Positions 1,474 through 62,214 of a DNA stretch of 64,000 nt are shown here, piece after piece. Location of the stretch: NCBI GenBank assembly GCA_965227695.1, contig OZ245760.1:88580-152579 (forward strand), written 5' to 3'. How positions within the stretch are numbered: position 1 is the first letter of the stretch; every line of letters starts with the position of its first letter. This stretch comes from Gammaproteobacteria bacterium (GTDB lineage Bacteria; Pseudomonadota; Gammaproteobacteria; UBA4575). The notes under the pieces were generated by a model. The model did not search any database, had not been told where the DNA came from, and saw nothing but the letters and a program-made list of their open reading frames with translations. Made by a program: the position numbers and the translations under genes.

Positions 1474-2010
1474 GTGAACATAAAGATACTAAACCTTGCA
1501 GTCATATTTTTAACCTGCACTCTGTTTTATACGCCTGTCAGCGCAGCCAAGCCACCAGCACGGGTGATTGCTGGCTGGGTTGAAAAGATTCAGTTAGAAA
1601 ACCACCCTCATCATATCAAGGCCAAACTCGACACTGGCGCCAAAACCTCTTCTATCTACGCCACAGATATTGAAGCGTTTAAAAAAGATGGACAAAGATG
1701 GGTGAGATTCACTTTACACTTGACAGATAGCGAAGGTAAGACATTCGAGCACTTGATGGAGAAGCCTCGCTCACGAAAAGCAAATATAAAAAATCATGAT
1801 GGTGATCATGATCAGCGTTATGTTGTGGATCTGAATATTTGCTTTAATGGCAACTATTATACAACTGAATTTACACTTGCCGACCGAAGTGAATTTATTT
1901 ATGGCATTTTGCTTGGAAGGAGATTTTTAAAGCTTACCGCACTGGTAGATGCGAACAAGACTTTCCTGACCACGCCGGCATGCAAGATCGATACAGCATT
2001 GCCCCAATAA
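1474..2010 (+). CDS. Retropepsin-like aspartic protease family protein (DUF785, 'ATP-dependent zinc protease' family), secreted/lipoprotein
   Basis: Signal peptide, D-T-G-A catalytic-like motif (KLDTGAKTS), conserved partner of the next two genes. Confidence 0.6.
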   Translation: MNIKILNLAVIFLTCTLFYTPVSAAKPPARVIAGWVEKIQLENHPHHIKAKLDTGAKTSSIYATDIEAFKKDGQRWVRFTLHLTDSEGKTFEHLMEKPRSRKANIKNHDGDHDQRYVVDLNICFNGNYYTTEFTLADRSEFIYGILLGRRFLKLTALVDANKTFLTTPACKIDTALPQ

Positions 2011-2025
2011 ACCTTATTAACACTC

Positions 2026-3561: not shown

Positions 3562-4514
3562 TCAGATTCGCGACCCCAAGCACTTTGCGTAAATTCGGCA
3601 TACTCGGTATCAATCAGCGTAACAGCGATTATGTGATGCGTTACAATCCCCGCCACTTATACCCGCTCGTGGATGACAAGCTCACTACAAAAAAACTTGC
3701 CTTGGATGCTGGCATTGAAGTACCGCCATTGTATTCCATCATCACAATAAACCATCAAATCAATTCACTTGAAACTCTTCTGGCAGAACATGAAGAGGTA
3801 GTCATCAAACCTGCCAATGGCAGCGGGGGCAACGGAATCCTGGTTCTGGACGGAAAGGTAGGAAAATTATATAAAACGGCAGGCGGCAACTTAATTAGCC
3901 TGAGTTCAGCGAAACATTATGTATCCAATATTTTATCAGGCATGTATAGCCTGGGAGGACACTCTGACAAAGCCTTTTTAGAGTACCGCGTCAAACCTGA
4001 TCCTGTGTTTGACTCCATTAGTTTTAAAGGCGTCCCTGATATTCGCATTATCGTCTTCAAAGGAATTCCGGTGACCGCGATGATCCGTTTACCAACAAGT
4101 AAATCTGACGGCAAAGCCAATTTGCACCAGGGCGCGATTGGTGTCGGCATCAGTCTGGCAACCGGCAAAACCACCTATGCAGTTAATGGCAACCAAATGA
4201 CAACAACCCATCCCGATACCGGACACCTTATTCACGGTCTGGAAATTCCCCAGTGGGACAAAATTCTTGGAATCGCCATCAAATGTGCAGACACGGTGGG
4301 GCTTGGGTATCTGGGAGTCGATATGGTTCTTGATCATGAACTTGGACCTCTCATGCTGGAACTAAATGCACGACCCGGATTAAATGTTCAGCTCGCAAAC
4401 CAACAGGGTCTGAAGAAAATTCTGAAGAAAATTGAAAACGTCGGCCAGTTGCCCGCAGACATAAACCAGCGAATTTCTCTATCCAAATCACTGGCACTGA
4501 CTGACTTTCAATAA
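3558..4514 (+). CDS. Alpha-L-glutamate ligase-like ATP-grasp protein (RimK-related)
   Basis: ATP-grasp fold motifs (VVIKPANGSGGNGI, GVDMVLD...ELNARPG), 318 aa, conserved trio with the two upstream genes. Confidence 0.7.
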   Translation: MIRFATPSTLRKFGILGINQRNSDYVMRYNPRHLYPLVDDKLTTKKLALDAGIEVPPLYSIITINHQINSLETLLAEHEEVVIKPANGSGGNGILVLDGKVGKLYKTAGGNLISLSSAKHYVSNILSGMYSLGGHSDKAFLEYRVKPDPVFDSISFKGVPDIRIIVFKGIPVTAMIRLPTSKSDGKANLHQGAIGVGISLATGKTTYAVNGNQMTTTHPDTGHLIHGLEIPQWDKILGIAIKCADTVGLGYLGVDMVLDHELGPLMLELNARPGLNVQLANQQGLKKILKKIENVGQLPADINQRISLSKSLALTDFQ

Positions 4515-48537: not shown

Positions 48538-48675
48538 ATTTTTTATACATACAACTAGAGGAGAAGGGCTGTTATTCGCGGTCCTGTCAGCCGGAGATAA
48601 CACTGTTGTACCGGGAGTTTAGGTGTCAACAGTGCTGTCTTCCGCCTCCATAACCAATAGAGGAGAATCATTAAT

Positions 48676-49896
48676 ATGTTCAATTGGGACGACCCGTTAG
48701 CCGATGCCAATTCGTCAGGGCAACAAAATCCTGCTGCCAATATGCCAACAAAATTCAGTGCCACAGACTCACCTGCTATGGGTACAGATACACCTGTAGC
48801 CCAAACCGCCTCTCCACAAACCATGCCTGTCACAAACGAATCTGCCGGTGCCACCGGACTTGAAGATATAGAGATGGGCGCTGCGCGCATTCGCGTTGAT
48901 GATAAAAAAATTATCAATTGCCGTGCAGACCTGAACCAGCTCGTTCCTTTCAAGTATGACTGGGCATGGCAAAAATACCTGGATGGCTGCGCCAATCACT
49001 GGATGCCTCAGGAAATCAATATGACTCAGGATATCGCGCTCTGGAAAAGCACTGATGGCTTAACAGAGGATGAGCGGACGGTAATCAAGCGCAATTTGGG
49101 TTTCTTCTCAACAGCAGATTCCCTTGTTGCCAATAATCTCGTGTTGGCCGTCTACAAACACATCACCAATCCAGAATGCCGTCAGTATTTATTACGCCAG
49201 GCATTCGAAGAGGCTTTACATACTCATGCGTACCAGTATTGTATTGAATCACTTGGCCTGGATGAAGGTGAAGTTTTCAACATGTACCGTGAAGTCCCGG
49301 CAGTCGCCAAAAAGGCTGAGTGGGCACTTCCGTTTACACAAAGTCTGGGAGACCCTCACTTTGCAACAGGCACCCCTGATATGGACCAGCGTCTTCTTCG
49401 CGACCTGATTGCATTCTATGTAGTTTTTGAAGGCATTTTCTTCTATGTGGGTTTTGTGCAAATACTGTCTATGGGGCGGCGCAATAAAATGACAGGCGTG
49501 GCCGAGCAGTTTCAGTATATTTTACGGGACGAGTCAATGCATATGAACTTCGGCATTGACGTCATTAATCAAATTAAACTTGAAAACCCGCACTTGTGGA
49601 ACAGCAGTTTTCAGCAGGAAATGGTCAAGCTGATCACTGAAGCTGTGGAGCTTGAAATTCAATATGCACAAGATACCATGCCTCGTGGCATTCTTGGTCT
49701 AAACGCTAACATGTTTGCAGAATACCTGCACTTCATTGCTAACCGTCGCTGTGCGCAAATTGGTTTGCCGGAGCAGTATCCAGGGGCAACAAATCCTTTC
49801 CCGTGGATGTCGGAAGTTCTGGATCTGAAGAAAGAGAAAAATTTCTTTGAAACACGTGTTACTGAATATCAAACAGGCGGTGCACTCGTCTGGTAA
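48676..49896 (+). CDS. nrdB: Ribonucleoside-diphosphate reductase beta subunit with low-complexity N-terminal extension
   Basis: Di-iron ligands (EEALH, ESMH), Tyr radical region, C-terminal tail; about 60-aa Ala/Thr/Pro-rich N-terminus. Confidence 0.9.
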
Positions 49897-49997: not shown

Positions 49998-50426
49998 CTA
50001 TTCAACGGTAATAGTAATTTTCTCGGAGATTACAGGTTTGTCGTGCGGAATATGATTATGATCACCGAGCAGCAACTGTAACGTATGTTGTCCGGGCTCA
50101 AGTGTAAGCACGGTTTCTGTTTGCCCCCCACCAAAATGTTTTATATTTTCATTCGCGGGTAACGGTTTTGATAAATCGGGAAGCGTTTCAAGATTAATCA
50201 ATATGTGATGATGCCCGGTATGTTCACGATCTGTACCTGCCGGGGCAACACCCATCCCCGTTAACCCAAATTTTACAGTAAAAGTTGCAGGGACAGTCGC
50301 ACCATCCGCAGGTTCAATGAAATAGACCTTAGCTCCTTCAGGGGCTTTTGAATAATTTAGCGACTCAGAGTAGGTTACATTGATTAAACCACTGAACATG
50401 AGTATACATAAAAAAAGTCGGGACAT
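49998..50426 (-). CDS. DUF4399-like secreted protein, His-rich
   Basis: Signal peptide, HTGHHHILIN and DHNHIPHD motifs; 142 aa. Confidence 0.45.
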   Translation of the reverse strand: MSRLFLCILMFSGLINVTYSESLNYSKAPEGAKVYFIEPADGATVPATFTVKFGLTGMGVAPAGTDREHTGHHHILINLETLPDLSKPLPANENIKHFGGGQTETVLTLEPGQHTLQLLLGDHNHIPHDKPVISEKITITVE

Positions 50427-50737
50427 AATGATTCCTTATGATATTAATAGCAAATCTTCATCAGCCTAGGTGGCGATAATAGCCACAAAAATCTACAGGA
50501 TTAACACTGATTCTTTATTTAACACTAAGACCCGTTAAACGATATAACATTCAATCAAATAAATCCATATCATGCCGCCGCCCTGTCATTTTATGTTTTA
50601 GGATAGGACCGCTTGCACATGTACCGCATTTGTTATTTGTTTTATCTCACCGGCGCGTTTTCCCGTGATGAAGAACATGACTCAAGCGGCAAAATAAATT
50701 ACATACTGTTGTTTAATTTAAATCATACAAAAACAAA

Positions 50738-51169
50738 ATGAATACCAGTATCTGGGACATATATATCAATTCATACATTGGTTCAAAAGGCTGTGTATGG
50801 GCTGGTCCAGATGCCGTTAGTCTTCCGCTGACTACGCCAGTTCATATAATCACCGCATGGAATCCTTATGAAAAAATTCTTTCACTTTCACAAAATACTA
50901 AACGCAATCGCGACTTACTGGATATGCTGAATCAATATAATATAGAAGTACTCGATGTCGTAGGTTATTCGCCAGGTGAAAAATGGAAAGAAGAGAGTTT
51001 TGCCGTTTCCGGTCTCAGTCGTAATCAGGCATGTCAAATAGCTATTAGATATGGACAACGGGGGATTTTTGAAATTCTTGAAGACATCCTGCTTGTTATA
51101 GAAGTCAATTCTCAAAAAATAAGACGAAGTCGACCTAGAATTATCAGGAATAAGTGTTACCATGTATGA
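50738..51169 (+). CDS. DUF3293-like hypothetical protein
   Basis: HIITAWNP motif; 143 aa. Confidence 0.4.
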   Translation: MNTSIWDIYINSYIGSKGCVWAGPDAVSLPLTTPVHIITAWNPYEKILSLSQNTKRNRDLLDMLNQYNIEVLDVVGYSPGEKWKEESFAVSGLSRNQACQIAIRYGQRGIFEILEDILLVIEVNSQKIRRSRPRIIRNKCYHV

Positions 51170-51193
51170 ACAGCAAATCACTGAGTCTACCTT

Positions 51194-51532
51194 ATGAGCA
51201 AGCATATTAAATCTTCTCTTTCTACAACTGAGTACGAACCATTCATGGTCGGCGACAAGCAGGCAGGCGAAGTGCATTGGCTAACAACACAAAACTCCAG
51301 TGGCGCACCGACATACTCGGGTTTATGGCGTTGTGAACCGATGACTTTTGAGTACGAATTTCCTGGCGACGAAATATTTCATATTATCGAAGGCACGCTG
51401 AAAATAGATCTTGAGGATGGCAGCAGCGTGACCGTCAGCGAGGGCGATATTATTTCGTTTGACAAAGGCGTCAAGTCGACATGGACAGTACAGAGCTCAT
51501 TCAAGAAATTTTTTGTGATTTCAAACTGTTAA
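51194..51532 (+). CDS. Cupin-domain protein (DUF861-type)
   Basis: Small cupin barrel (GDEIFHIIEGTLKI ... GDIISFDKG). Confidence 0.5.
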   Translation: MSKHIKSSLSTTEYEPFMVGDKQAGEVHWLTTQNSSGAPTYSGLWRCEPMTFEYEFPGDEIFHIIEGTLKIDLEDGSSVTVSEGDIISFDKGVKSTWTVQSSFKKFFVISNC

Positions 51533-51715
51533 GACAGCTTAAGTCTTCTTTGCTGAGACATGTGTATTCATCGCATATAGAGTGAGTAATGGAAAAGATA
51601 ATATTGAATCCATAAATAGGGATGTCAGCAAATACCATGGTCATGTATTAAAGCATTTATACTGATTTATAATTTATTGGCCACTATTGAAATAAAACAG
51701 ACTCATACATTATTG

Positions 51716-52321
51716 TTATAGTTGATTCCACTTCTTCTTACGCTGCCAGGGAATTCTGGTTAGAACAATTCCGAAAATCATACTGACAACCACTACGATT
51801 GCGCCTCGCGTAAACCATTCCCGATCTTTCATCGGTGATTTTAGCACTTCACTCTCAGCGGCCAACTTGTCAAATCGCTGTTTCTCCAGGGCCAGCTGAG
51901 ACTTGAGGCGATCATTTTCTCTTTGTAGTTCCAGTGGACGTTGTGCAATTTCCTTAAGTTGCTGTATTTCTTTTTGCATTGCCGCCTTCTCTTGTGCGAC
52001 AGCCTGATCAAATTTTGTTTTAAGCGTTTCAAACCGTTTTTCAAGTTTCGCCAAGCGCTCCCGGCCTGACGGCTCATTCATTAGATAACGTGATAGCACC
52101 CACCCTTCTCTGCCATTTTGCATTCGCACCCGGCTATAGCCTTCACTTTCCTCTAATACCTGCAATGGCGTACCACTTTTTATCTGACGAATTATTTCAT
52201 GCTTGGTACTTTGACCCGTTCGCAGCATGATTTCAAATTCATCAGTGACATATTTTGTTTCTGAGGATGCCACCTGGCTTGCGACAAGCAAACCAATAGC
52301 AAAACATTGTTTAACTAACTT
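51716..52321 (-). CDS. Bacterial SH3-domain protein, YgiM-like (coiled coil plus C-terminal TM)
   Basis: Signal peptide, SH3b region, coiled coil, C-terminal hydrophobic helix then basic tail. Confidence 0.6.
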   Translation of the reverse strand, partial: KLVKQCFAIGLLVASQVASSETKYVTDEFEIMLRTGQSTKHEIIRQIKSGTPLQVLEESEGYSRVRMQNGREGWVLSRYLMNEPSGRERLAKLEKRFETLKTKFDQAVAQEKAAMQKEIQQLKEIAQRPLELQRENDRLKSQLALEKQRFDKLAAESEVLKSPMKDREWFTRGAIVVVVSMIFGIVLTRIPWQRKKKWNQL

Positions 52322-52334
52322 CATCTTATTATTG

Positions 52335-53252
52335 TCAGATATCAACACGTGAAACGGTGTAACCATCTTTTTCCATTAATGCAAGTACTCCTTTATCACC
52401 ATACAGGTGCACGGCACCAACTGCAATGAAGGTATCACCAAGACGCATCGGTTTGCGCATGTAATGCTCCATCACAATATTCCGAATTTCTATTACATGA
52501 CGCAGGTATATTTGCCGCCACTGCTCATTTTCAGGCTCATTCGGAATAAAACTTGTACTGATTTCATACATGCTTTTCAAATCCTGTTGCAGGTATGCAT
52601 TTAACATTTCTTCTATAATATTGTGCATTCTTTCATAGCTGTTGACCGTAAATTTCAACAGGGCCACCTGGGCATCGATCGGCATTTCCTGCAAGGTAAC
52701 AATAAATTCCTCAATTGACTCTACTTGATATAATTCTTTTCGCTGGTCAGCAGCACGCTCCAGCAAAGCATAATCAAGGATGATATCATTTGTTTTAGCG
52801 CGTACAGCAAAACTGCGCATTGCCGCCCATGGCCTCAAGGTTTTTACCAACTCAGGCTGCATACCTAAATCATCTACCAGTATTGTCTGTATCTTTTGAA
52901 AGGTTTCCCGGTCAACATACTTATCCAGCGTCTCCCCCCTGGGTAGTACCATGTCGTGTTTGATTAATTGACCGCCCTGGTATGGATTCCAGTAATGATC
53001 GCTCGGGAAGGCTTCCATAGCAAAACTTTTAGAGTCGTCAAGCACTCTGCTTACCTTCTCATGCAGCTTGCCAATGCGCGCATCATTCATATGTAATGTG
53101 CCAAAGATATGGCCCACGTATTTTCCGTCTTTTTCAATCTTCCAGAACAATCCCTTGTCAAAGCTCTGCCCGTCTTCCTTGGCGGATACATGGATAATCA
53201 TAATCATTGCTATGATTAATACGCAAAGTATGTAAATTTTATTTTTCATCAT
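52335..53252 (-). CDS. TraB/GumN family protein
   Basis: LFWKIEKDGK..GHIFGTLH motif; start at MMKNK. Confidence 0.6.
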   Translation of the reverse strand: MMKNKIYILCVLIIAMIMIIHVSAKEDGQSFDKGLFWKIEKDGKYVGHIFGTLHMNDARIGKLHEKVSRVLDDSKSFAMEAFPSDHYWNPYQGGQLIKHDMVLPRGETLDKYVDRETFQKIQTILVDDLGMQPELVKTLRPWAAMRSFAVRAKTNDIILDYALLERAADQRKELYQVESIEEFIVTLQEMPIDAQVALLKFTVNSYERMHNIIEEMLNAYLQQDLKSMYEISTSFIPNEPENEQWRQIYLRHVIEIRNIVMEHYMRKPMRLGDTFIAVGAVHLYGDKGVLALMEKDGYTVSRVDI

Positions 53253-53302
53253 GCTCTCCCGACACGCTACTGACAATTATAGAGAAAACTACTTTTTAAC
53301 AA

Positions 53303-53340
53303 TAAAAAAAGCCGCTACAGGTTAATGTAGCGGCTTTTTT
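53303..53340. terminator. Bidirectional rho-independent terminator (A-run, hairpin, T-run)
   Basis: aaaaaaa-gccgctaca-ggttaa-tgtagcggc-tttttt; terminates the minus-strand flavoprotein gene. Confidence 0.75.
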
Positions 53341-53371
53341 GTGTCTTGACCAACTGACAAAATATGCAATG

Positions 53372-54490
53372 CTAGATTTTACGCAATGTTTTAGGCACCT
53401 GCTCATAAGCAGGTGAAATGGCATCATGCGGACATGCGTCCACGCAAGCATAGCATCTGATGCACTCGGTCTCATCAATGAACAGTGAATTGTAATAAAG
53501 CCCTGAAGTATGCCCTGGACGCACACGCTCAAAATCAGTCACATCATCGTTACTTACTTTGAAGTTTGTCGCCTCAACAATACAGTTCTTTATGGGTTTT
53601 GCCATTAGACACTCATCACAAAGCACGCATTTAACATTATCTATGACAGGCGCAGGGGAACGTGCATCTTCAAACTTATCATAATATATATCAGATGACG
53701 AAAGCCCGGCTTCCTTTAATACCTGAACACCATGATCAATCATTGGAGGTGGACCACAGAAAAATGCTTTGATATTTTCTGCATTCACGACCCCCTTATT
53801 GAGGTACTCTTCCTGGAAATACTGTGTAACGAAACCGCGCGGCCCATCCCAGTCACTATCTTCAGGCTCCTCTGACAGCACCGGAATAAATTTAAATGTC
53901 CTGCCGCCCGGCCACTCATGCTCAAACGCTTTAAGTTCATCGACCAGATAGAGATCTTTTTGGGTACGGGCACCGTAAAAGAAGTAAAAATCACGTTCAA
54001 TGCCCTGCACTTTAGCTTGCTGGGCAATCGCATTAATCGCGCTCATTCCGGAACCACCGGCGATACCTACAATGGTCTTGCTGGAATCATCAAGCCCGAA
54101 CTTACCCATCGGTCCTGAAAGCTCAACCTTTTCACCTGTTCGATCTTTTTGCGCCAGCCAGCTGGACAATTCACCGCCTTCAACCAGCCGGATAAAGAAT
54201 GTGTACTCATTTGGATTTTCCATCTCCGGTGTTTGGGCAAATGAGTAAGAGCGCGGCTTCTTGATTCCGTCAACCTTAATTGTGCCATACTGTCCAGCAC
54301 GTGCGCTGAGCTTGTATGAACCTTCAGGACACTTAATGACAACCCGATAGGTATCGTATGTAAGATTTTCAAACTTGGTAATCTCACCTTCATTAGTATG
54401 CACACGCAGTGTCTGAACATCCGGGTTTGGTTCCGGCAAAGTTCGAATATATATATCAAATGGATCGTTAAATGTTTCTAGCTTTGCCAT
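53372..54490 (-). CDS. FNR-family flavoprotein (FAD/NAD(P)-binding) with C-terminal 2x[4Fe-4S] ferredoxin domain
   Basis: FAD-binding barrel (RSYSFA), NAD-binding GIAGGSGM, C-terminal CxxCxxC...C and CxxCxxCxxxCP. Confidence 0.7.
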   Translation of the reverse strand: MAKLETFNDPFDIYIRTLPEPNPDVQTLRVHTNEGEITKFENLTYDTYRVVIKCPEGSYKLSARAGQYGTIKVDGIKKPRSYSFAQTPEMENPNEYTFFIRLVEGGELSSWLAQKDRTGEKVELSGPMGKFGLDDSSKTIVGIAGGSGMSAINAIAQQAKVQGIERDFYFFYGARTQKDLYLVDELKAFEHEWPGGRTFKFIPVLSEEPEDSDWDGPRGFVTQYFQEEYLNKGVVNAENIKAFFCGPPPMIDHGVQVLKEAGLSSSDIYYDKFEDARSPAPVIDNVKCVLCDECLMAKPIKNCIVEATNFKVSNDDVTDFERVRPGHTSGLYYNSLFIDETECIRCYACVDACPHDAISPAYEQVPKTLRKI

Positions 54491-56811
54491 TAGTTAAACA
54501 CTCCTAGATGTAATTGTTCTGCCTGTTTGAGTATCTCTTCATCAGTGGCTTCAACACCCTGATTCCGTGGATCATCACGCCACTTCCTGATATACCCTTC
54601 TTTGCCTCCCCATTCCTGGAGTAAGGCCTGTTTGCGCATTTTTTCGTCTGCTTTTTCGACTTCGACCAAGACCGAATAAAATGTGGGACTCATACCAAAA
54701 TCGGTCAGCATTTCTGTGTTCAGCGCATTGATGTTGACACCGCCAGGTGTATTACTGCCTTTGAACTGCTTTTGTGTTGAGCACATTCCAGACAACATTC
54801 CTTCGATAATGACAGCGTAGGCGTAGGTTTCGCCACGATCATTATACAATCGACACAGATCACCATCCTGCAAGCCCCGCTTGGATGCTTCCTCGGGACT
54901 GAGTTCTACCGTCGGCCGTGACATCATGGCCTGTAAGCGAGGCACAGACTGGAAAGAGTCTCCAATGAAGTAATGAGAGGCACTTGAGAGCACCTGTAGA
55001 GGATACTTGTCGCGTTTTGGATCTTCCTGACCTTCGATTTCAGGCACATAGCTTGGCAGCGGATCAACCCCTTCTTCCTTGAGTGCTTCACTATAAATTT
55101 CAATTTTTCCGCTAGGTGTCGGCCAGCCATTTTTCATGAAGTTGCGGCGGTCGGACTCGGTATTTGCTCGTGCCCACCCGTTCTTTTTGAGGTCTTCGTA
55201 CTTGATACCTTCCATCAATGGATTGACTTCATCCTGGACCAGGATATCGCGGATGATCTCCTCATCAGTTTGTGTGAACGCATTGTCAGTGTCCTTGTCA
55301 TACCCCATCTTCTTGGCCAGCATGCGGAATAATTCCGAGTTACGTACACTCTCGCCTTCAGGCTCGATAATGGGCTCGTTCATGACGTAATACCAGTTAC
55401 CGTAAGTGGCAACCAGGTCCATTCTTTCGAGCTGCGTGTCGGCTGGCAGCACAATATCGGCGTATTCACACGAATCCGTCCAGAACGTTTCATGGACTGC
55501 CACAAATAGATCATCGCGCATCAGGCCACGTCGCACCCCGTTGGAATTTGGAGCACAGTTCGCCGGATCACTGTTGTAGATAAAAATCGATTTAATGGGC
55601 GGATCCATTTTTTCGCCATCCGAGCCGATATCTTCATCCAGCGCACGACCGATTTGCACCATGTTTACCACCCGCTTTGAGGCACGGTCACCCAGGTCTG
55701 GACGGTGAAGTTTGGCCAGGTCATGACGTAACCACATTTCTTCGAGATTACCAAAGCTGGCGCCACCACAGCGATGTCTCCAGGAACCGGTTATACAGGG
55801 CAGTATGAGAACCGCCCGACACATTTGCCCGGCATTCTGGTGTCGGTTTAAACCGTAGTTGGCACGTATCACCGCGATTTTGGCTGAAGCATATTCGGTG
55901 GCAAGTTTTTCTATGTCTGCGGCAGGGACCCCGGTTATTTTCTCCACTTTGTCAAGCGGGTAATCAGGGAGCTTGGTTTCCAGAAGCGCTTCCCACCCCA
56001 GTGTTTGTTCTTTCAGAAATTCAATATCATGCATTCCCTTATCGACAATGACCTTCATCATTCCCAGCGCCAGTGCCGCGTCTGTTCCGGGTCGTGGCTG
56101 TATATGCCAGTCAGCCATCATTGTTGTACGCGTTTGACGTGGATCAATAACAACCAGTTTGGCGCCGCGTTCCTTGGCTTCACGTATGAATGGGATCGCA
56201 TGCACCCCTGTGCTTACAAGATTTGCCCCCCACAGGATAATGTAATCAGCTTCCTGCGCGGCCTCGTGAATTGAGGTGTTGGCGTGTGCCATGCCGTATG
56301 TATGCAAACCAGCCCACATCGCCGCATAAATGCAGATAGATTGTTCAAGACGTGCAGCTTCCATTTTATTCCAGAAGCGCTGATCCATCGTCCAGAAGCC
56401 AACCATGCCCATAGTGCCGGAGTAGGAATACGGCTGTACTGCTTCAGAGCCATATTTTTCAATTGTCTCTTTAAAATTGTTGGTGATGGTATCAAGCGCT
56501 TCATCCCAGCTGATTCGTTCAAACTTGGCGCCGGGGCCTTTGGGGCCAACACGCTTGTGGGGATACATGACACGATTTTCGTTATAGACAAAATCGAGAT
56601 AATGATTGACTTTGTTACATAAGTATCCGCGTGTAATAGGATGGGTCGGATCACCCTGCACACGCACCGCTTTCCCCGTGGCGTCGTCGCGTGTCACCAG
56701 CATGGAGCATGAGTCCGGGCAATCATGCGGGCAGAATGAATGATGTACTGAATAGCCTTCCGGAACTTTTATGCGATCGCTGACTGCGGTGATTTTATTG
56801 CTGTCTGTCAT
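54490..56811 (-). CDS. Cytoplasmic molybdopterin (bis-MGD) oxidoreductase family protein, substrate unknown
   Basis: N-terminal Fe-S motif C-x3-C-x3-C...C (FCPHDCPDSC...C), MopB domains, no Tat signal; stop overlaps start of downstream flavoprotein gene (TAATG). Confidence 0.7.
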   Translation of the reverse strand: MTDSNKITAVSDRIKVPEGYSVHHSFCPHDCPDSCSMLVTRDDATGKAVRVQGDPTHPITRGYLCNKVNHYLDFVYNENRVMYPHKRVGPKGPGAKFERISWDEALDTITNNFKETIEKYGSEAVQPYSYSGTMGMVGFWTMDQRFWNKMEAARLEQSICIYAAMWAGLHTYGMAHANTSIHEAAQEADYIILWGANLVSTGVHAIPFIREAKERGAKLVVIDPRQTRTTMMADWHIQPRPGTDAALALGMMKVIVDKGMHDIEFLKEQTLGWEALLETKLPDYPLDKVEKITGVPAADIEKLATEYASAKIAVIRANYGLNRHQNAGQMCRAVLILPCITGSWRHRCGGASFGNLEEMWLRHDLAKLHRPDLGDRASKRVVNMVQIGRALDEDIGSDGEKMDPPIKSIFIYNSDPANCAPNSNGVRRGLMRDDLFVAVHETFWTDSCEYADIVLPADTQLERMDLVATYGNWYYVMNEPIIEPEGESVRNSELFRMLAKKMGYDKDTDNAFTQTDEEIIRDILVQDEVNPLMEGIKYEDLKKNGWARANTESDRRNFMKNGWPTPSGKIEIYSEALKEEGVDPLPSYVPEIEGQEDPKRDKYPLQVLSSASHYFIGDSFQSVPRLQAMMSRPTVELSPEEASKRGLQDGDLCRLYNDRGETYAYAVIIEGMLSGMCSTQKQFKGSNTPGGVNINALNTEMLTDFGMSPTFYSVLVEVEKADEKMRKQALLQEWGGKEGYIRKWRDDPRNQGVEATDEEILKQAEQLHLGVFN

Positions 56812-56973
56812 TTGGTGTTGACCTCCTATCTACGCTGTGGTTTGGCGCTTTAATGATTATATTACTGATACCGAATCCGTTACTTCAAACATACTACAAG
56901 CCCATTTTTAGAACAACTTCAGGTGTCCATTTTGAACAAATGTAAAGCAAAATTTACGAAATTAACCCCCTGT

Positions 56974-58047
56974 TCACAATAAGGGTATCTGCCTTCCCTC
57001 CACCAGCTCCGAATCTGGCATTAAATTTGATGCGGAAATACCCAGCAAACGCACAGGTAAGTGCTTTACGATAGCATTATCCAGTAGCTCGGGTATCACG
57101 TGGATTATCGACTCTGAAGTGCGAAACCCTGAATGGCGGGAATAACTCCGCGTGACTTGTGTGAAGTCCGAAAACTTGACCTTGATCGTAATGGTTTTTG
57201 CCATCCCTCCAAACTGGCTGAGTTGCTGCTCTAATTGCTTGCTCTGTAAACTGAATACATTGAGCATTTCTTCATGCGTATTTAAATCTACCTCAAACGT
57301 ATCCTCTGTACCGATGGATTTTCGCAAACGGTCGGCTTCTACCGCCCGATTATCCACCCCTTTTGCCGCATGATAATAATAATGCGCGGACTTGCCGAAA
57401 ACTGGCTGTAATGCCTCAAGTTCCCAGGCAGCCAGGTCAGCTCCAGTATAAATTCCAAGGCCGTTCATTTTTTCTTCAGTTGCCGGCCCTATACCAAAGA
57501 ATTCACGGATATTTAGGGACTTGACGAACTCCGGACCTTCTTTTGGTGAAATATACAGCAACCCGCTTGGCTTACATCGACCTGATGCAATCTTGGCCAG
57601 AAATTTATTATAAGACACACCCGCCGAGGCAGTTAATCCTGTGTGACGCCTGATTTGCTGGCATATATCCTTTGCTATCAGGACACCCGAACCGCCGCGG
57701 GTCATTTCCGCCGTGACATCCAGATAGGCCTCATCCAGCGCGAGCGGCTCGATCAATTCTGTATAATTCGCAAGAATTGTTTTTATTTGTGCGGATACAT
57801 CCCGGTAGACAGCAAAGCGTGGTTTAACGAATATTGCTTGCGGGCAAATGCGTTTGGCCACCGCGCACGGCATCGCCGAGTGAACACCAAATTCTCGTGC
57901 CTCGTAGCTACACGTCGCCACAACACCACGATGCTCCGGATCACCACCGACGATCAACGGCTGGTTTCGATAACATGGAAAGTCCCGCTGCTCGATGGCA
58001 GCGTAAAAAGCATCCATATCAATATGGATGATGCTTCTTTCAGACAT
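56974..58047 (-). CDS. dinB: DNA polymerase IV
   Basis: IIHIDMDAFYAAIE N-terminus, Y-family palm/fingers/little-finger. Confidence 0.9.
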   Translation of the reverse strand: MSERSIIHIDMDAFYAAIEQRDFPCYRNQPLIVGGDPEHRGVVATCSYEAREFGVHSAMPCAVAKRICPQAIFVKPRFAVYRDVSAQIKTILANYTELIEPLALDEAYLDVTAEMTRGGSGVLIAKDICQQIRRHTGLTASAGVSYNKFLAKIASGRCKPSGLLYISPKEGPEFVKSLNIREFFGIGPATEEKMNGLGIYTGADLAAWELEALQPVFGKSAHYYYHAAKGVDNRAVEADRLRKSIGTEDTFEVDLNTHEEMLNVFSLQSKQLEQQLSQFGGMAKTITIKVKFSDFTQVTRSYSRHSGFRTSESIIHVIPELLDNAIVKHLPVRLLGISASNLMPDSELVEGRQIPLL

Positions 58048-58251: not shown

Positions 58252-58920
58252 ATGAGCAGTTCAAGTTCAACTCTTCCAGCCACCATTCTGGTGGTGGTTG
58301 CAATCATCCTTTTAGGCATTTTTTATTACCTTGACCGCTCGGCGGACAACTCAGACCTTTCTGCTATCACCGAAACTGCAGACACCGACAGCATGATTGC
58401 AAAAAAGAAAAAGTATGAAGCCAACAAATCGGCCTTCTCTCACTCCGGTTTTGACGGTTCCATGCAGGATTATCTCGGTTATGTAGAAAGCGGCATGAAA
58501 CCAGACGCGGACGTTGTATCACATACCGGTTTTAGCGGCACTGGTAGCGACTATGCACAACAGCATCGTGATAAAGAAATCACCCAGATTATTAAAAATG
58601 TTGGTGACCATCATGGCTTTAGTGGCTCCATGAACGATTATGCCGCAGGCAAATTCGGTTCAGGTTATACAGGCAAATCCGCAGATGGCACCAAGTATAA
58701 AGTAGCCAACAACGCTGGCGATGATAAGGCAGCTAACCATGGCGGGTTCAGTGGTTCGATGAAGGACTACGAAAAAGGTAATTATGGCGTAAAAGCTTCC
58801 AGCCAGGAAACTGGCAAGGCACAGTCAACTAAGATGCCTGCCAAGACTGATTCCGCTAACAATGCCTCTCACAGTGGGTACACCGGCTCAATGGATGATT
58901 ATTTAAAGAAGCACCAGTAG
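58252..58920 (+). CDS. Membrane-anchored repeat protein with five H-x-G-F/Y-S/D/T-G-S-M-x-D-Y units
   Basis: N-terminal TM (LPATILVVVAIILLGIFYYL), repeats SHSGFDGSMQDYL / SHTGFSGTGSDYA / HHGFSGSMNDYA / NHGGFSGSMKDYE / SHSGYTGSMDDYL. Confidence 0.5.
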   Translation: MSSSSSTLPATILVVVAIILLGIFYYLDRSADNSDLSAITETADTDSMIAKKKKYEANKSAFSHSGFDGSMQDYLGYVESGMKPDADVVSHTGFSGTGSDYAQQHRDKEITQIIKNVGDHHGFSGSMNDYAAGKFGSGYTGKSADGTKYKVANNAGDDKAANHGGFSGSMKDYEKGNYGVKASSQETGKAQSTKMPAKTDSANNASHSGYTGSMDDYLKKHQ

Positions 58921-58921
58921 A

Positions 58922-59629
58922 CTAATTCACTGGCAATCTGGCACGTAATTCATCGCGGTCAATCCACCAGCTGCGACCTACAATGGCATCAATGACCTTA
59001 CCTAGACGGGCAAATAACTCGTCTAGGTTGTTCAGCTCCAGCATTTCAATCCAGATCTGAATAGACTCTTCATCTTCAATTCCTCGATGGCGCTTGGCCA
59101 CCATGGCAATAAGCTGCTTGGCTAAGAACATCAGGCTGTCTTTATCTTCGTCCGGGGCGCGCAATTCTGCCAGGTATAACGCCGCGACACTCGCAACAGC
59201 TGCTCCATCAGAGTTATCTGGTGTTTCTTCAACGATATAAGAGAGCATATCTACTGATAATGCTGGATCAATGGGGTAGGTGACCGCCAGCCAACAACCA
59301 TGTCCCAATGCAATAATCGAGTCCTCCTGTTCGGCTAAATAAAGCAACTCACATGCCTCAACGGCTTGCTGGTAGGATTCAGCTTCAACAAACGTTTTCA
59401 CCAGCGGACGCGCTTCCTGCCAACAGGTGGCATTCTCACCCAGCCCCAGCCTGGCTCTGGCTATACCGAGCTTTGTCCTGGCAACCTCAACAGGTTCTGC
59501 ATCATTACCAAGGTCTGCTAACTGTTGCATGTACGTCTGCAACTCTTTCTCAAAGAATACCCGTGCATCACCGAGGTCCTGACCACTCAGGGTTTCCGAC
59601 ATTGCCCTGGAAAGAATTTCTCTACTCAT
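58922..59629 (-). CDS. Hypothetical acidic protein, no recognised domain
   Basis: 235-aa ORF with good coding character; function unknown. Confidence 0.4.
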   Translation of the reverse strand: MSREILSRAMSETLSGQDLGDARVFFEKELQTYMQQLADLGNDAEPVEVARTKLGIARARLGLGENATCWQEARPLVKTFVEAESYQQAVEACELLYLAEQEDSIIALGHGCWLAVTYPIDPALSVDMLSYIVEETPDNSDGAAVASVAALYLAELRAPDEDKDSLMFLAKQLIAMVAKRHRGIEDEESIQIWIEMLELNNLDELFARLGKVIDAIVGRSWWIDRDELRARLPVN

Positions 59630-59872: not shown

Positions 59873-61015
59873 TTATGCGTAGCCGGCGACCTGATTAATT
59901 TCAGCCGCCACCTTGCGCTCGCCTTCTGAGGCCATCTCTTCATCCCATTTGCCTAATTGCTCTTCCATATACTTGTGCCAGATCGGCGGAAGCAATGTCA
60001 GCGCAAACAGCGTAAAGTACCCGCGACCACAGTTCGGCGACCCTACTTCGTCCAGCTCCCAAAAATGGGTCTCGCCTCGGTCATGATGATCGCCCTGACG
60101 GCCAATCTCTATGAAAAACCAGCTCGTAAACGCCGTGCTGTTATCCCAGCTGTGACGATAGTCAATCGGCTGACCCTTCTCGCGGATTAACCCATAATGC
60201 TCCAGATAGTTCAGCGCTTCCAGCTCAAAGTTGGAAATCAGCCACACAATCGCCAAACAGCCAATGCCAACCCAGCCACCAACAAACCAGAATAACAATA
60301 CCGTCGGTAACGACATCATGTAGCCGCGTATCCAGCGATTCTGCCATGACAAAAAGGGTACGCCCAATCGCTCCAGACGCTGCTTCTCCATCATGAACAA
60401 AAACTTGCTCTGACCAATCCCGGACAACGGATAATGCTTGAATAAACTGCGTCCGCGCGGCGATGTCGCCGGATCATCCTGATGGCCCAGCTCCAAATGA
60501 TGGTTGTATACGTGCGCATAACAAAAATGCGCCTTGCCTGACAACGCCATCATCCAGCGCGCAATCACAAAACTGAACCCTTTCGTATGCGCCAGCTCAT
60601 GCCCGTAGATAATACCAATCCCGGCAAATATCCCTGTCGATATCGTCGCACCAATTAACTGACTCCCGGTAATCCCGTCCTGTATCGTTAACCCCAGTAA
60701 TGTCGACTCGCCAATCGGTACGCCAGTCATGTACTGAAATATCCGCCATGCCAGCGTGATCTGAAGCAATACGAATATGCCTAGCATCCCGTACATCACA
60801 CCATTGTGTAACGCCGGTATCCCGTATAACTCGCCATTCTCGTCAAATCCAGCACCCGGTGTCTGCGCCTTCGTCAGCGTGTCCACCACAATCCCAATGC
60901 CCAGCAAGGCTACACCAGTCCACACCCACGGACCGCCTGCCAATACTCCAAACATCGCCGCCAGTATCATCAATGGCGCTAAAAAATAGCGTACGTTGAT
61001 TAAAAATCTCTTCAT
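59873..61015 (-). CDS. AlkB-family integral-membrane non-heme di-iron hydroxylase (alkane 1-monooxygenase / fatty-acid desaturase superfamily)
   Basis: His boxes HELAH, HVYNHH and NYLEHYGL motif; N-terminal TM helices; 380 aa. Confidence 0.65.
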   Translation of the reverse strand: MKRFLINVRYFLAPLMILAAMFGVLAGGPWVWTGVALLGIGIVVDTLTKAQTPGAGFDENGELYGIPALHNGVMYGMLGIFVLLQITLAWRIFQYMTGVPIGESTLLGLTIQDGITGSQLIGATISTGIFAGIGIIYGHELAHTKGFSFVIARWMMALSGKAHFCYAHVYNHHLELGHQDDPATSPRGRSLFKHYPLSGIGQSKFLFMMEKQRLERLGVPFLSWQNRWIRGYMMSLPTVLLFWFVGGWVGIGCLAIVWLISNFELEALNYLEHYGLIREKGQPIDYRHSWDNSTAFTSWFFIEIGRQGDHHDRGETHFWELDEVGSPNCGRGYFTLFALTLLPPIWHKYMEEQLGKWDEEMASEGERKVAAEINQVAGYA

Positions 61016-61239: not shown

Positions 61240-62214
61240 ATGAGTTTAGAGACTAACGTCACAAATCCACAGCACCCGATTCAGGTTGTCGCCAGAAGGA
61301 CCGGGCTGACCGCCGACGTTATTCGCGCCTGGGAACGGCGCTATCGGGCGGTCACGCCGCAACGTGCAGCCAACAGTCGCCGATTATACTCGGATCTTGA
61401 TGTTGAAAAGCTAAGCCTGCTAAGAAGAGCCACTGCCGCGGGCCGGCGCATTGGCGATATCGCCAGCTATAGTATTGAAGAACTTTATCGCCTGGTGGAT
61501 AATGATGAAAGTGCCGCCGCCCAGGCGCGTAACCTCCCGGCAGAACGTCCCAACACAGGCTCAGTCATGGAACACTTTGAAGAGTGTCTTGATGCCATTA
61601 ACCACATGCAACCTAACGCACTGAAAGCCAGCTTGGTGAAAGCTGCGAATACTCTAGGGATCCCTTTTCTGCTGGAGGATTTGCTGCGTCCACTTATCGC
61701 TTACGTGAAAGATGAGTGTCGTCGGGGGACCATGCGTTTGTCACAGGAGCGCATGGCAACGTCTATGGTACGGTCGTATATGTGCACACTGACTGCTTCG
61801 GAAGTAAAGCATGACCGCCAGCCTTCGCTGATTGTCACCACACCCATCGGCCAAAAGCATGATCTTATTGCGCTAAGAATGGCGGTAGCTGCCAATTCTT
61901 ATGGATGGAACACGATCTTTTTGGGCACGGAACTACCCGCAGATGAAATAGTTTTTGCCTGCATACACTCTCAGTCTATTGCCGTCGCGCTGGGCATTGC
62001 CAGGCCGGCAGATGACCCACATTTACCCAATGTAATCAGGCAGATTAAAAGCTCACTACCAGAAAATATCACTTTGATTGTATGCGGTAGTGCCGTATCA
62101 GGTTACACTGAAGTGATTGAGGAGGTGGGCGCCATTGTCGTGCAAACCATGGGAGAATTGCGACTGGAACTTGACCGGCTGAAGCGACCCATCGCCGCTT
62201 TCCTGGATCAATGA
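61240..62214 (+). CDS. MerR-family transcriptional regulator with C-terminal B12-binding-like domain (CarH/LitR-like)
   Basis: MerR HTH (IQVVARRTGLTADVIRAWERRY), C-terminal Rossmann-like B12-binding region (GQKHDLIAL...GWNTIFLG). Confidence 0.6.
   Translation: MSLETNVTNPQHPIQVVARRTGLTADVIRAWERRYRAVTPQRAANSRRLYSDLDVEKLSLLRRATAAGRRIGDIASYSIEELYRLVDNDESAAAQARNLPAERPNTGSVMEHFEECLDAINHMQPNALKASLVKAANTLGIPFLLEDLLRPLIAYVKDECRRGTMRLSQERMATSMVRSYMCTLTASEVKHDRQPSLIVTTPIGQKHDLIALRMAVAANSYGWNTIFLGTELPADEIVFACIHSQSIAVALGIARPADDPHLPNVIRQIKSSLPENITLIVCGSAVSGYTEVIEEVGAIVVQTMGELRLELDRLKRPIAAFLDQ

Follow-up and report, generated by a model that had tools for sequence, protein, structure and literature searches.

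A probable NAD(P)H-linked cytoplasmic molybdoenzyme from an unnamed MopB clade, encoded with its flavoprotein partner in a UBA4575 gammaproteobacterium

Results

Organization of the two-gene unit

We analysed a 64,000-nucleotide window of contig OZ245760.1 (GenBank assembly GCA_965227695.1), in which a MopB gene and a gene for an FNR-type flavoprotein are adjacent on the minus strand. The features of the locus are given in Table 1. Both open reading frames lie where a sequence-only reading had placed them, and their Pfam domains agree with the families that it had assigned. The overlap it described was also borne out at the junction (...AAC TAA TGG...), where the stop codon TAA (54492..54490) and the start codon ATG (54490..54488) have one base in common. 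An AGGAG is located about 10 nt 5' of the partner-gene start codon, and the MopB gene has a Shine-Dalgarno sequence, AGGAGG, at approximately 56827..56822. Neither a terminator nor a convincing promoter was found between dinB and the MopB gene, and an Rfam search of the region 5' of the MopB gene gave zero matches, Moco riboswitch included. The terminator proposed to follow the pair corresponds to a terminator-like hairpin with a T-run. The locus context is of the dinB, TraB/GumN type. No MoaA homologue and no second MopB were found by tblastn over the window.

Table 1. Features of the gene pair and its flanks (positions in the window).
Feature	Coordinates	Strand	Basis or detail
MopB catalytic subunit ORF, 773 aa	54490..56811	-	ORF list and Pfam
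Partner FNR-type flavoprotein ORF, 372 aa	53372..54490	-	ORF list and Pfam
TAATG stop/start overlap, MopB gene to partner gene	54488..54492	-	Sequence read
Intergenic region 5' of MopB gene	56812..56973	-	Between dinB (56974..58047) and MopB start
FS0 [4Fe-4S] binding segment (predicted)	56617..56733	-	C27-x3-C31-x3-C35 ... C65, then K67
Codon of Cys160, predicted Mo ligand, followed by Ile161	56332..56334	-	Alignment and profile
C-terminal extension of MopB, ~50 aa (residues 723-773), three predicted helices	54493..54645	-	Alignment, BLASTP, AF2
FNR-type FAD/NAD(P)H module, residues about 30-275	53666..54403	-	R80-x-Y-S83, AGGSGM and FCGPP motifs; Pfam
C-terminal 2x[4Fe-4S] ferredoxin tail of partner	53375..53644	-	Pfam Fer4 and alignment
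Intrinsic-terminator-like hairpin closing the two-gene unit	53305..53340	-	15-bp stem, 6 G-C pairs, then T-run

The MopB subunit

On sequence grounds, the 773-aa protein is a cytoplasmic enzyme of the DMSO-reductase superfamily (MopB) with a predicted Mo/W-bisPGD cofactor. The molybdopterin-binding signatures expected by the sequence-only reading are present, with Molybdop_Fe4S4 (47.5 bits), Molybdopterin (138.5 bits) and Molydop_binding (51.5 bits) all above their Pfam gathering cutoffs. The AF2 model (pLDDT 91.4, pTM 0.91) matches solved MopB enzymes with TM-scores of 0.68-0.77. At the N-terminus the motif reads C27-PHD-C31-PDS-C35, and residue 65 supplies the fourth cysteine. The spacing is the NarG-type one, with Cys replacing His, that had been noted earlier. 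A twin-arginine signal was not found in the 26 residues ahead of C27, in agreement with the earlier claim that the protein has no Tat signal. In an alignment of 40 diverse family members C27, C31, C35, C65, K67 and C160 are invariant, and D33, two residues after the second FS0 cysteine, shows conservation of at least 90%. The family profile aligns Cys160 with the Cys/Sec ligand of FdhF-type enzymes and with Cys173 of polysulfide reductase. The C-terminal extension is modelled by AF2 at a pLDDT of about 81-90 and is missing from most of the wider family, including the 724-aa Hyphomicrobium methylovorum orthologue (alignment; BLASTP). It may serve in docking the partner.

The C-x3-C-x3-C motif had been described as unusual. 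This holds relative to Fdh, Nas and Nap but not within the protein's own clade, where the motif is the rule (118 of about 125 N-terminally complete representatives). Judged from these sequences, it is the hallmark of a very large, unnamed MopB clade comprising thousands of proteins. The subunit may belong to CDD cd02766 'MopB_3', a group of uncharacterised MopB proteins. MopB_3 appears as a clade label in PMC13524816. In the literature, we found no biochemical or genetic study of any clade member.

The partner flavoprotein

Pfam identifies FAD_binding_6, NAD_binding_1 and Fer4 domains in the 372-aa protein, all above gathering cutoffs. Within the FNR module, R80, S83, G145-G148, C245 and G246 are invariant in the alignment, Y82 is at least 90% conserved, and AF2 gives a pLDDT >90 over most of the length. 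The nearest solved structures to this module are BenC, GcoB, MmoC and NqrF, which are NADH-oxidising electron donors. The C-terminal 2x[4Fe-4S] tail reported by the sequence-only reading has the pattern C288-x2-C-x2-C-x8-C303, an insert of ~39 residues, then C343-x2-C-x2-C-x3-C353-P. All eight cysteines (C288, C291, C294, C303, C343, C346, C349 and C353) are invariant across 28 homologues; the tail is poorly modelled by AF2, with a pLDDT <50.

The partner shares its FNR-type FAD/NAD module with class IB/III oxygenase reductases (BenC, XylA, MmoC, GcoB), NqrF and Hcp-Hcr, and would, like them, be a private NADH-oxidising donor encoded beside its metalloenzyme. These proteins carry a plant-type [2Fe-2S] domain, usually N-terminal, whereas the partner has a C-terminal bacterial-type 2x[4Fe-4S] tail with x8 spacing and the long insert, and its acceptor would be a molybdoenzyme. 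Membership of the BenC/XylA class was rejected since Pfam finds no Fer2 domain and the tail is present instead; the BenC model scores 144 bits against a cutoff of 430.

Conservation of the pairing and proposed electron pathway

Among 80 genome loci, 76 have the partner gene immediately 3' of the MopB gene. Of the four exceptions, two are truncated where the contig ends and two represent second copies, in MAGs already holding the pair. A one-base overlap of the two genes is seen in about 30 of 66 related loci, with gaps of 0-71 nt in the remainder. The pair spans three phyla, from marine bacteria to H. methylovorum (MopB orthologue 72% identical), Pseudonocardia and one methylotroph contig. One 71%-identical MopB copy and two paralogues have no partner nearby, and an ArsR-type regulator adjoins a partner-less paralogue. 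Most carriers of the pair come from seawater and sponges, and many bear the names of sulfur-oxidiser lineages (Porisulfidus, Thiothrix, Thiotrichales).

Other redox partners accompany MopB in related clades. One sister clade has a GltD-like flavoprotein fused to a homologous 2x[4Fe-4S] tail (42-44% identity to the partner tail), a sister-clade locus (L100) has a [2Fe-2S]-FNR (Fer2-FNR) protein, and the cluster of an Agrobacterium homologue contains a ferredoxin, Pyr_redox_2 and MoaA. A chain running from NAD(P)H through FAD and Fe-S clusters to Mo is supported by the conserved gene pair and by the repeated occurrence of NAD(P)H flavoproteins in sister clades, and with it the earlier proposal that the MopB protein has a dedicated NAD(P)H flavoprotein. 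The Pseudonocardia gene string also includes the Moco genes moaA and moeA, which, like the moaA of the Agrobacterium cluster, are indirectly in keeping with a bound Mo- or W-bisPGD cofactor.

The pair is probably a soluble cytoplasmic Mo-bisPGD oxidoreductase of two subunits, with NAD(P)H as its electron source. NAD(P)H would be oxidised at the FNR-type FAD site of the 372-aa subunit, whose pair of [4Fe-4S] clusters would relay single electrons to FS0, the [4Fe-4S] cluster of the 773-aa subunit (C27/C31/C35/C65). From FS0 the electrons would travel by way of Lys67 and the pterin to molybdenum ligated by Cys160, the proposed site of substrate reduction. We infer that the subunits form a complex and that the metal is molybdenum. 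The direction of electron flow is proposed by analogy with the relatives of the flavoprotein only, and gene order suggests that the chain may be self-contained, as the sequence-only reading had it.

Comparison with known molybdoenzyme families

The MopB subunit fell within no characterised clade: every NCBIfam model scores far below its cutoff, and its PDB relatives are all 15-24% identical. The active-site signatures of Fdh, Nas/Nap, DMSO reductase and NarG are all absent. The pair represents a familiar type of enzyme in an uncharacterised form, and its MopB subunit belongs to an uncharacterised branch of the superfamily.

A sequence-diverged, unconventional assimilatory nitrate reductase or formate dehydrogenase would likewise be a cytoplasmic MopB protein in which FS0 is combined with Cys ligation of the metal. 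Nas and Fds systems linked to NAD(P)H are known, a Foldseek search with the model ranks Fdh1 of M. extorquens first, and the higher NCBIfam scores include those of Fdh-alpha (TIGR01591, 257 bits) and NasC (228 bits). These scores are far under their cutoffs of 666 and 1100, however, as is that of NasA_Halo (116 against 1000), and the FS0 motif is C-x3-C-x3-C rather than C-x2-C-x3-C. Ile follows Cys160 and the consensus has no His at this position; the PLRGxNNVQG-type Arg motif is also absent, the FdhF 'PLRGQNNVQG' region reading GGxxxxTS. In the gene orders of about 100 orthogroup and sister-clade loci examined, the pair is not adjoined by genes for a nitrite reductase or a nitrate transporter, or by any formate-linked gene. 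We therefore rejected both Nas (NasA/NasC/NarB) and formate dehydrogenase, along with the FdhF/YdeP family (TIGR01701, 72 bits; cutoff 582). The missing catalytic residues largely refute this reading, which we regard as highly improbable, and the earlier statement that the layout is not that of a canonical Nas or Fdh stands. The likeness to NAD(P)H-linked Nas is one of logic, with soluble transfer from NAD(P)H through flavin, Fe-S and FS0 to Cys-ligated Mo for non-respiratory reduction in aerobes. Nas enzymes differ in MopB clade, in FS0 spacing and in having the Nas/Nap active-site motif, and their partners are NirB-like or diflavin reductases rather than FNR with 2x[4Fe-4S]. Known arrangements are NasC or NasA with a NasB- or NasC-type flavoprotein, and a fused NasN in mycobacteria.

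In Type II enzymes (NarG, PcrA, EbdA, SerA) the first three FS0 ligands have the same x3/x3 spacing, and PcrA is the second-best PDB sequence match. In contrast to these enzymes, the subunit is cytoplasmic, much smaller and has Cys rather than His as first ligand. The Asp ligand of PcrA aligns with Leu168, no four-cluster beta subunit was seen in the loci examined, no NarJ-type chaperone is nearby, and narG scores 79 against a cutoff of 1084. This family (NarG/PcrA/EbdA) was also rejected.

The top NCBIfam score is that of dmsA_ynfE, with 301 bits over a full-length alignment (cutoff 777.7), while bisC_fam reaches 211 (cutoff 1017) and TorA 136 (cutoff 909). BisC/BSOR, DorA, TorA and DmsA are Mo-bisPGD enzymes that reduce small S- or N-oxides, and BisC/BSOR is cytoplasmic and NADPH-linked. 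They have a Ser ligand where Cys is found here, BisC, DorA and TorA lack FS0, and a DmsB/DmsC-type or TorC-type partner is absent from the pair. The Cys ligand and the scores under cutoff led us to reject membership of the S-/N-oxide reductase families. This result lowers the case for membership and not the possibility of a similar reaction.

Acetylene hydratase as a relative

The best sequence match among solved structures is acetylene hydratase (AH), at 194 bits, or 364 bits with the family profile, and 24% identity. An AH-type non-redox hydratase, with an alkyne, nitrile, cyanide or cyanamide-like triple bond as its target, would use the flavoprotein as an activase or maintenance reductase that holds Mo/W(IV) reduced in aerobic cells, and not as a catalytic donor. 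Cys160-Ile161 mirrors Cys141-Ile142 of AH, and the nearly invariant D33 is near the position of the AH catalytic Asp13. Like AH of Pelobacter (Syntrophotalea) acetylenicus (PDB 2e7z; 'AH-like' group), the subunit is cytoplasmic, has no Tat signal and one FS0, and combines a Cys metal ligand followed by Ile with a conserved Lys between cluster and pterin and an acidic residue beside the second FS0 cysteine. The literature on AH also fits: no AH has been characterised from aerobic acetylenotrophs, the R. opacus enzyme is Mo-dependent, and Fe-S proteins and transporters adjoin AH genes (PMC7858054). Further along, the Pseudonocardia gene string encodes a YaaH-family channel and a CoA-acylating semialdehyde dehydrogenase, and other loci have amide, urea or ammonium transporters, which would suit such a hydratase.

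Against this, AH is distant in sequence, and the MopB subunit is structurally equidistant from AH, Fdh, Nap, DMSO reductase and PcrA. The FS0 motif of AH is C-x2-C-x3-C, its catalytic Asp is at +1 after the cysteine whereas Asp33 is at +2, its hydrophobic-ring residues are not evidently conserved here, and its Trp179 aligns with Gly, although with low confidence in a pairwise alignment. No dedicated NAD(P)H flavoprotein is known for AH. Three different NAD(P)H flavoprotein solutions and translational coupling resemble stoichiometric redox partners more than activases, and acetylene is scarce in the seawater and sponge habitats of most carriers. We consider the hydratase unlikely. If it were one, the pair would be the uncharacterised 'aerobic-type' Mo hydratase, with a private NAD(P)H reductase to maintain its activity.

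Neighbouring genes and candidate substrates

Sulfur genes lie near the pair in some lineages. In 14 Porisulfidus-type loci a co-oriented YeeE gene is directly 5', SoxY and TusA are <10 kb from the pair in Porisulfidus, and TauE, SQR-like, persulfide-dioxygenase-like and FCSD genes are <10 kb from the Hyphomicrobium copy. Sox-like-looking proteins are found 5' in L100, as judged from one 5_nucleotid_C match (a SoxB-like protein) and inspection. These neighbours, the sulfur-oxidiser names of carriers, the ArsR-type regulator beside a partner-less paralogue, a Cys Mo ligand as in Psr/Phs/Ttr and the place of polysulfide reductase among the better profile matches would fit a cytoplasmic enzyme of inorganic sulfur. 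Such an enzyme could run in the reverse direction, as a sulfite dehydrogenase that reduces NAD(P)+, or it could use NAD(P)H to reduce thiosulfate, tetrathionate or polysulfide, in the latter case with substrate brought in by YeeE-type transporters in sulfur-oxidising bacteria. The sulfur neighbours are, however, lineage-specific and absent from the dinB, TraB/GumN, Pseudonocardia and methylotroph contexts, and their proximity is likely due to chance because such genes are common in sulfur oxidisers. The score for PhsA, 183, falls short of its cutoff of 694, FNR modules of the BenC/NqrF kind normally oxidise NADH, and thiosulfate reduction by NAD(P)H is unfavourable by standard potentials. An inorganic-sulfur role is as doubtful as the hydratase.

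Channels and transporters, which vary among loci, also flank the pair. AmiS/UreI channels adjoin it in two lineages and are 66% identical to each other, a TorF-family porin and a Liv/Urt-like ABC transporter occur nearby, and Amt and an MFS transporter are among the neighbours in some loci. Together with the sulfur genes, these flanking proteins (AmiS/UreI, YaaH-family, porins, Liv/Urt-like ABC, Amt, YeeE) hint at an S- or N-oxide that is small and polar, for example DMSO. No accessory gene was found that is kept across all locus contexts, so the case for a substrate is a patchwork of lineage-specific neighbours, part of which may be chance synteny.

For the NAD(P)H-driven oxidoreductase we offer a low-confidence guess at the substrate: a polar S- or N-oxide that carries no charge and is small. 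DMSO is the leading candidate, and dimethylsulfone, TMAO and hydroxylamine- or hydroxyurea-type compounds are working alternatives. Uptake would be through the variable channels, and reduction would be oxygen-tolerant and non-respiratory. The Ser ligand of known S-/N-oxide reductases counts against this guess, as do the usual substrates of MopB enzymes with a Cys ligand, namely nitrate, formate, acetylene and species of sulfur or arsenic. Soluble NADH-dependent DMSO reductase activity was reportedly described decades ago in aerobic Hyphomicrobium and Arthrobacter, and to our knowledge no gene has been assigned to it. It is conceivable, though we would not expect it, that this orthogroup encodes the soluble DMSO (or dimethylsulfone) reductase whose NADH-dependent activity has been reported from aerobic methylotrophs. 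If true, marine bacteria and sponge or coral symbionts would reduce DMSO to DMS in the cytoplasm by an oxygen-tolerant route that has gone unrecognised. Elsewhere in the window, the first 19 kb consist of housekeeping genes.

Organisation of the gene pair

The two minus-strand genes listed first in the table encode a molybdoenzyme subunit (MopB) and an FNR-type flavoprotein with a ferredoxin tail (FNR-Fd, hereafter the partner). The pair represents a familiar kind of enzyme in a form that has yet to be characterised, and is not a new kind of system. In the junction, AAC-TAA-TGG, the last A of the TAA stop is also the first base of the ATG. The partner ATG is preceded by an AGGAG at about 10 nt, and the MopB ATG by an AGGAGG at nine bases. 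The earlier description of both ORFs, their overlap and a terminator proved accurate. Upstream on the same strand is dinB, separated from the MopB gene by a 162-bp spacer that contains neither a terminator nor a convincing promoter and has no Rfam match, and hence no molybdenum cofactor (Moco) riboswitch or other RNA element. Searches by tblastn with Agrobacterium MoaA and with the MopB itself revealed no MoaA and no second MopB in the window, the 1-19 kb portion of which consists of housekeeping genes (his, mla, lpt, rpoN).

G+C content beside the pair is 0.40-0.42, against about 0.46 elsewhere. This stretch includes small ORFs, a 216-aa protein, the TraB/GumN gene and the 3' portion of FNR-Fd, and may have been acquired recently or be variable.

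Coordinates of the gene pair, other features of the window, and features of comparison loci
Feature	Location	Strand	Description
MopB	54490..56811	-	ORF, 773 aa
FNR-Fd partner	53372..54490	-	ORF, 372 aa, directly after MopB
Hairpin	53340..53305	-	15-bp stem and T-run, 3' of partner gene
Low-G+C stretch	50001..54000
Small ORFs (examples)	50738..51169, 51194..51532		in low-G+C stretch
TraB/GumN gene	52335..53276		in low-G+C stretch
AlkB-like hydroxylase	59873..61015	-	Pfam FA_desaturase, 380 aa
MerR-family regulator	61240..62214	+	divergent from AlkB-like gene
Repeat protein	58252..58920	+	222 aa
Neighbour of repeat protein	58922..59629	-	235 aa
Three-gene cluster	1474..4514	+
Putative ribonucleotide reductase genes	45637..49896	+	966 aa and 406 aa
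Partner-less second MopB	L041:7995-10295		in a MAG that also holds the pair
Partner-less second MopB	L080:8007-10307		in a MAG that also holds the pair
Tandem FNR-2x[4Fe-4S] paralogues	L081:10001-12712		Hyphomicrobium methylovorum, after MopB
AlkB-like protein and [2Fe-2S]-FNR	L100:7686-9970	same as MopB	sister-clade locus, directly 5' of MopB

Conservation and spread of the pair

Scanning a single genome for each GTDB species yielded 95 confirmed relatives, from which 80 loci were retained. The coupled MopB and FNR-ferredoxin pair proposed by the sequence-only reading holds across this set: by tblastn the partner lies directly 3' of MopB in 76 of the 80 loci. Of the remaining four, two are truncated by contig ends and two are additional copies from MAGs in which the pair is also present. 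In about 30 of 66 loci the two genes have the one-base overlap, and in the remainder gaps of 0-71 nt separate them. When all ORFs of the 80 genome loci were clustered, no further conserved genes were found around the pair. TraB/GumN and DinB were considered as conserved accessory genes and rejected, as their recurrence is plain synteny of close relatives.

A search of the public gene collection gave no exact match to the window MopB; its best relative is 94% identical and comes from a marine gammaproteobacterial MAG. At 70% identity or above, the pair spans Gammaproteobacteria, Alphaproteobacteria and Actinobacteria, and occurs in a Hyphomicrobium methylovorum isolate (MopB of 724 aa, 72% identical), a Pseudonocardia assembly and a methylotroph contig that also carries H4MPT-pathway genes. 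Such identity in three further settings points to horizontal spread under strong constraint.

Several loci depart from the simple arrangement. In H. methylovorum, two tandem FNR-2x[4Fe-4S] paralogues, 53% identical, follow the MopB gene. The partner-less second MopB of two MAGs is 76% identical and divergent from an adjoining ArsR-family regulator, with an ABC exporter and His-rich periplasmic proteins nearby. A 7-kb contig from a Winogradskyella-labelled MAG (L088; JANQOM010000054.1) has a 71%-identical MopB without the FNR-Fd partner, 21 nt after a lipoyl-domain dihydrolipoamide-dehydrogenase-like gene; the contig may be mis-binned, or its flavoprotein may be a fourth kind of partner.

The MopB subunit lies outside the characterised clades

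The Pfam domains Molybdop_Fe4S4, Molybdopterin and Molydop_binding each score above cutoff in MopB, so molybdopterin signatures are present. MopB stays well below cutoff for all 18,950 NCBIfam models; the top score is 301 for dmsA_ynfE (cutoff 777.7), followed by Fdh-alpha (257/666), NasC (228/1100), BisC (211/1017), PhsA (183/694) and YdeP (72/582). MopB therefore belongs to no characterised clade. No twin-arginine signal precedes the cluster motif, as first read. An AlphaFold2 model built on 40 relatives (pLDDT 91.4, pTM 0.91) resembles solved MopB enzymes of all classes at TM 0.68-0.77 and only 15-24% identity, with Fdh1, PcrA, DMSO reductase, TorA, NapA, FdhH and acetylene hydratase (AH) at roughly the same structural distance. 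Residues 723-773 form a helical extension that is missing from most of the family.

The N-terminal C-x3-C-x3-C spacing had been singled out as unusual. The motif is present, typically as CP(H/L/R)DCPDxC, but it is clade-wide rather than peculiar to this gene, occurring in 118 of about 125 N-terminally complete sequences among the best 150 matches, and it therefore marks a very large family. Exhaustive searching with HMMER gave 2,062 cluster representatives at E <= 1e-30 and 19,418 at E <= 0.001, the latter taking in other MopB families too. Members carrying the motif (in Paenibacillus, Agrobacterium, Acidobacteria, Ktedonobacteria and others) are named only 'molybdopterin-containing oxidoreductase family protein', and names across the wider family are all generic. 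We found no paper characterising a member of this clade.

C27, C31, C35, C65, K67, R80, R87 and C160 are among the residues invariant in an alignment of 40 diverse members. In the 40-member profile, C160 aligns with the Cys/Sec metal ligand of FdhF-type enzymes and with Cys173 of polysulfide reductase. It is followed by Ile, where formate dehydrogenases have His; the segment opposite the FdhF Arg motif 'PLRGQNNVQG' is unrelated in sequence, and Leu168 stands opposite the Asp ligand of PcrA. From the spacing, Cys160 and the missing dyads, MopB is predicted to be a mixed enzyme with NarG-like cluster spacing (Cys for His), a Cys ligand and no known catalytic dyad. Nitrate reductase and formate dehydrogenase are effectively excluded, since their catalytic residues are missing, as are their expected neighbours in the gene orders of roughly 100 loci; this upholds the original view that the pair is not a canonical Nas or Fdh system.

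By sequence, the closest solved relative is AH (194 bits), followed by PcrA and FdhF. This makes a hydratase, kept reduced by the flavoprotein, an attractive reading: AH and MopB have in common a Cys-Ile pair and a nearby Asp, and, according to PMC7858054, aerobic acetylenotrophs have yet to yield a characterised AH and AH genes have Fe-S proteins and transporters as neighbours. Identity to AH is only 24%, however, AH is structurally no closer than other clades, and the partner appears stoichiometric. The position of the Asp also differs, as the catalytic residue of AH is one residue past the second cluster cysteine, whereas the nearly invariant D33 of MopB is two residues past it. In Wells et al. 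2023 (PMC10100899), a large phylogeny of MopB enzymes, there is an 'AH (?)' family with poorly supported monophyly, where best-hit logic would probably place this MopB. CDD has an uncharacterised 'MopB_3' group (mentioned in PMC13524816).

NAD(P)H flavoproteins as recurrent partners

Residues ~30-275 of the partner form an FNR-type FAD/NAD module by Pfam, modelled mostly at pLDDT above 90. The nearest solved relatives of this module are BenC, GcoB, MmoC, CarAd and NqrF, electron donors that oxidise NADH. BenC-type reductases have a plant-type [2Fe-2S] domain, whereas the partner has at its C-terminus a tail in which the cysteines fall into two groups, C288-x2-C-x2-C-x8-C303 and C343-x2-C-x2-C-x3-C353-P. 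The eight cysteines are invariant across 28 homologues with identity down to 49%; the model of the tail itself is poor (pLDDT below 50) and too weak for use.

Sister clades are wired differently. MopBs 55-61% identical are paired with a GltD-like flavoprotein (Fer4_20 + Pyr_redox_2), whose C-terminus is 42-44% identical to the window ferredoxin tail and whose gene, in two loci, runs into the start of the MopB gene. At L100, a 58%-identical MopB is preceded by a [2Fe-2S]-FNR and an AlkB-like membrane hydroxylase, and downstream of the 41%-identical Agrobacterium MopB come a ferredoxin, a Pyr_redox_2 reductase and MoaA. The soil family at ~40% identity, which makes up the bulk of the metagenome scan matches, has no constant neighbour or partner. 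The three independent NAD(P)H flavoprotein wirings, with a constant ferredoxin module, make the strongest case for NAD(P)H coupling as the selected function. The proposed NAD(P)H coupling through FNR-ferredoxin is supported, with the correction that several NAD(P)H modules are interchangeable in this role and the FNR-ferredoxin partner is just one such type. Flavoprotein modules swapped around a constant ferredoxin tail are a clear case of modular electron-transfer partner evolution.

An AlkB-like membrane di-iron hydroxylase is also encoded in the window, ~3 kb upstream of the MopB gene, with a divergent MerR-family regulator. The gene has the same position in 12 related loci, and the L100 protein is 28% identical to it. 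A functional link to MopB, through a shared reductase or pathway, is possible.

Gene neighbourhoods and candidate substrates

The pair occurs in about ten types of neighbourhood. In the window's own type, dinB precedes the pair and a TraB/GumN protein follows it; a second type has htpG and hsp33 upstream and dodecin and yaaA downstream. In one Piscirickettsiaceae MAG, an AmiS/UreI channel and a TorF-family porin are directly upstream. The methylotroph contig carries an AmiS/UreI channel 66% identical to that one, together with OmpW and an unnamed 443-aa protein, porin-like by inspection, which has no homology to a 432-aa neighbour in Hyphomicrobium. Pseudonocardia has a Gpr1/Fun34/YaaH-family channel, moaA, moeA and a CoA-acylating semialdehyde dehydrogenase; Hyphomicrobium has a Liv/Urt-like ABC transporter near the pair; and a Thiothrix-like group has an MFS transporter upstream and Amt downstream. 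Regulators noted for these systems are a GntR in Pseudonocardia and an AraC in Agrobacterium. YeeE is upstream in 14 Porisulfidus-type loci, sulfur-oxidation genes lie within 10 kb of the pair in Porisulfidus and Hyphomicrobium, and Sox-like proteins (by look, with a family match for the SoxB-like one only) are upstream at L100. What recurs across these contexts is a theme of small polar solute uptake; a link to sulfur metabolism comes second. A cytoplasmic sulfur enzyme, either a sulfite dehydrogenase or a thiosulfate/tetrathionate reductase, would match the sulfur-gene neighbours but not the other contexts.

A soluble NADH-dependent DMSO reductase activity has reportedly been described in aerobic Hyphomicrobium and Arthrobacter, with no gene assigned. 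DMSO is plentiful in seawater and in sponge and coral holobionts, and most carriers of the pair live in these habitats. Because of the solute-uptake theme, this activity and the abundance of DMSO, a small S- or N-oxide, DMSO first, is the leading candidate substrate, albeit a doubtful one. The predicted Cys ligand argues against membership in the Ser-ligated S-oxide reductases, while the chemistry would still be compatible. If DMSO or a related oxide is the substrate, the pair would contribute DMS by an aerobic, cytoplasmic route, both in the sea and in sponge holobionts.

Many steps in the nitrogen, sulfur, carbon, arsenic and selenium cycles are carried out by MopB enzymes, and a substrate assignment here would allow annotation of a large set of entries now labelled 'molybdopterin oxidoreductase family protein'. 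With two soluble gene products, probable direct use of NAD(P)H and at least one cultured methylotroph (Hyphomicrobium methylovorum), the pair is unusually tractable; being compact, soluble, widespread and strongly conserved across phyla, and occurring in such an organism, it has a function that can be tested directly.

Other features of the window

A 222-aa protein has an N-terminal membrane helix and five H-x-G-(F/Y)-(S/D/T)-G-(S/T)-(M/G)-x-D-Y repeats; it has no Pfam match at E <= 1e-5, and its 235-aa neighbour likewise has none in Pfam. A conserved three-gene cluster, poorly understood as a module, encodes a putative ATP-dependent Zn protease (PF05618), an inactive-transglutaminase/7TM protein and a sugar-transfer-associated ATP-grasp protein. 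Two further ORFs look by sequence like ribonucleotide reductase large and small subunits, the putative small subunit bearing a low-complexity N-terminal extension of ~70 residues.
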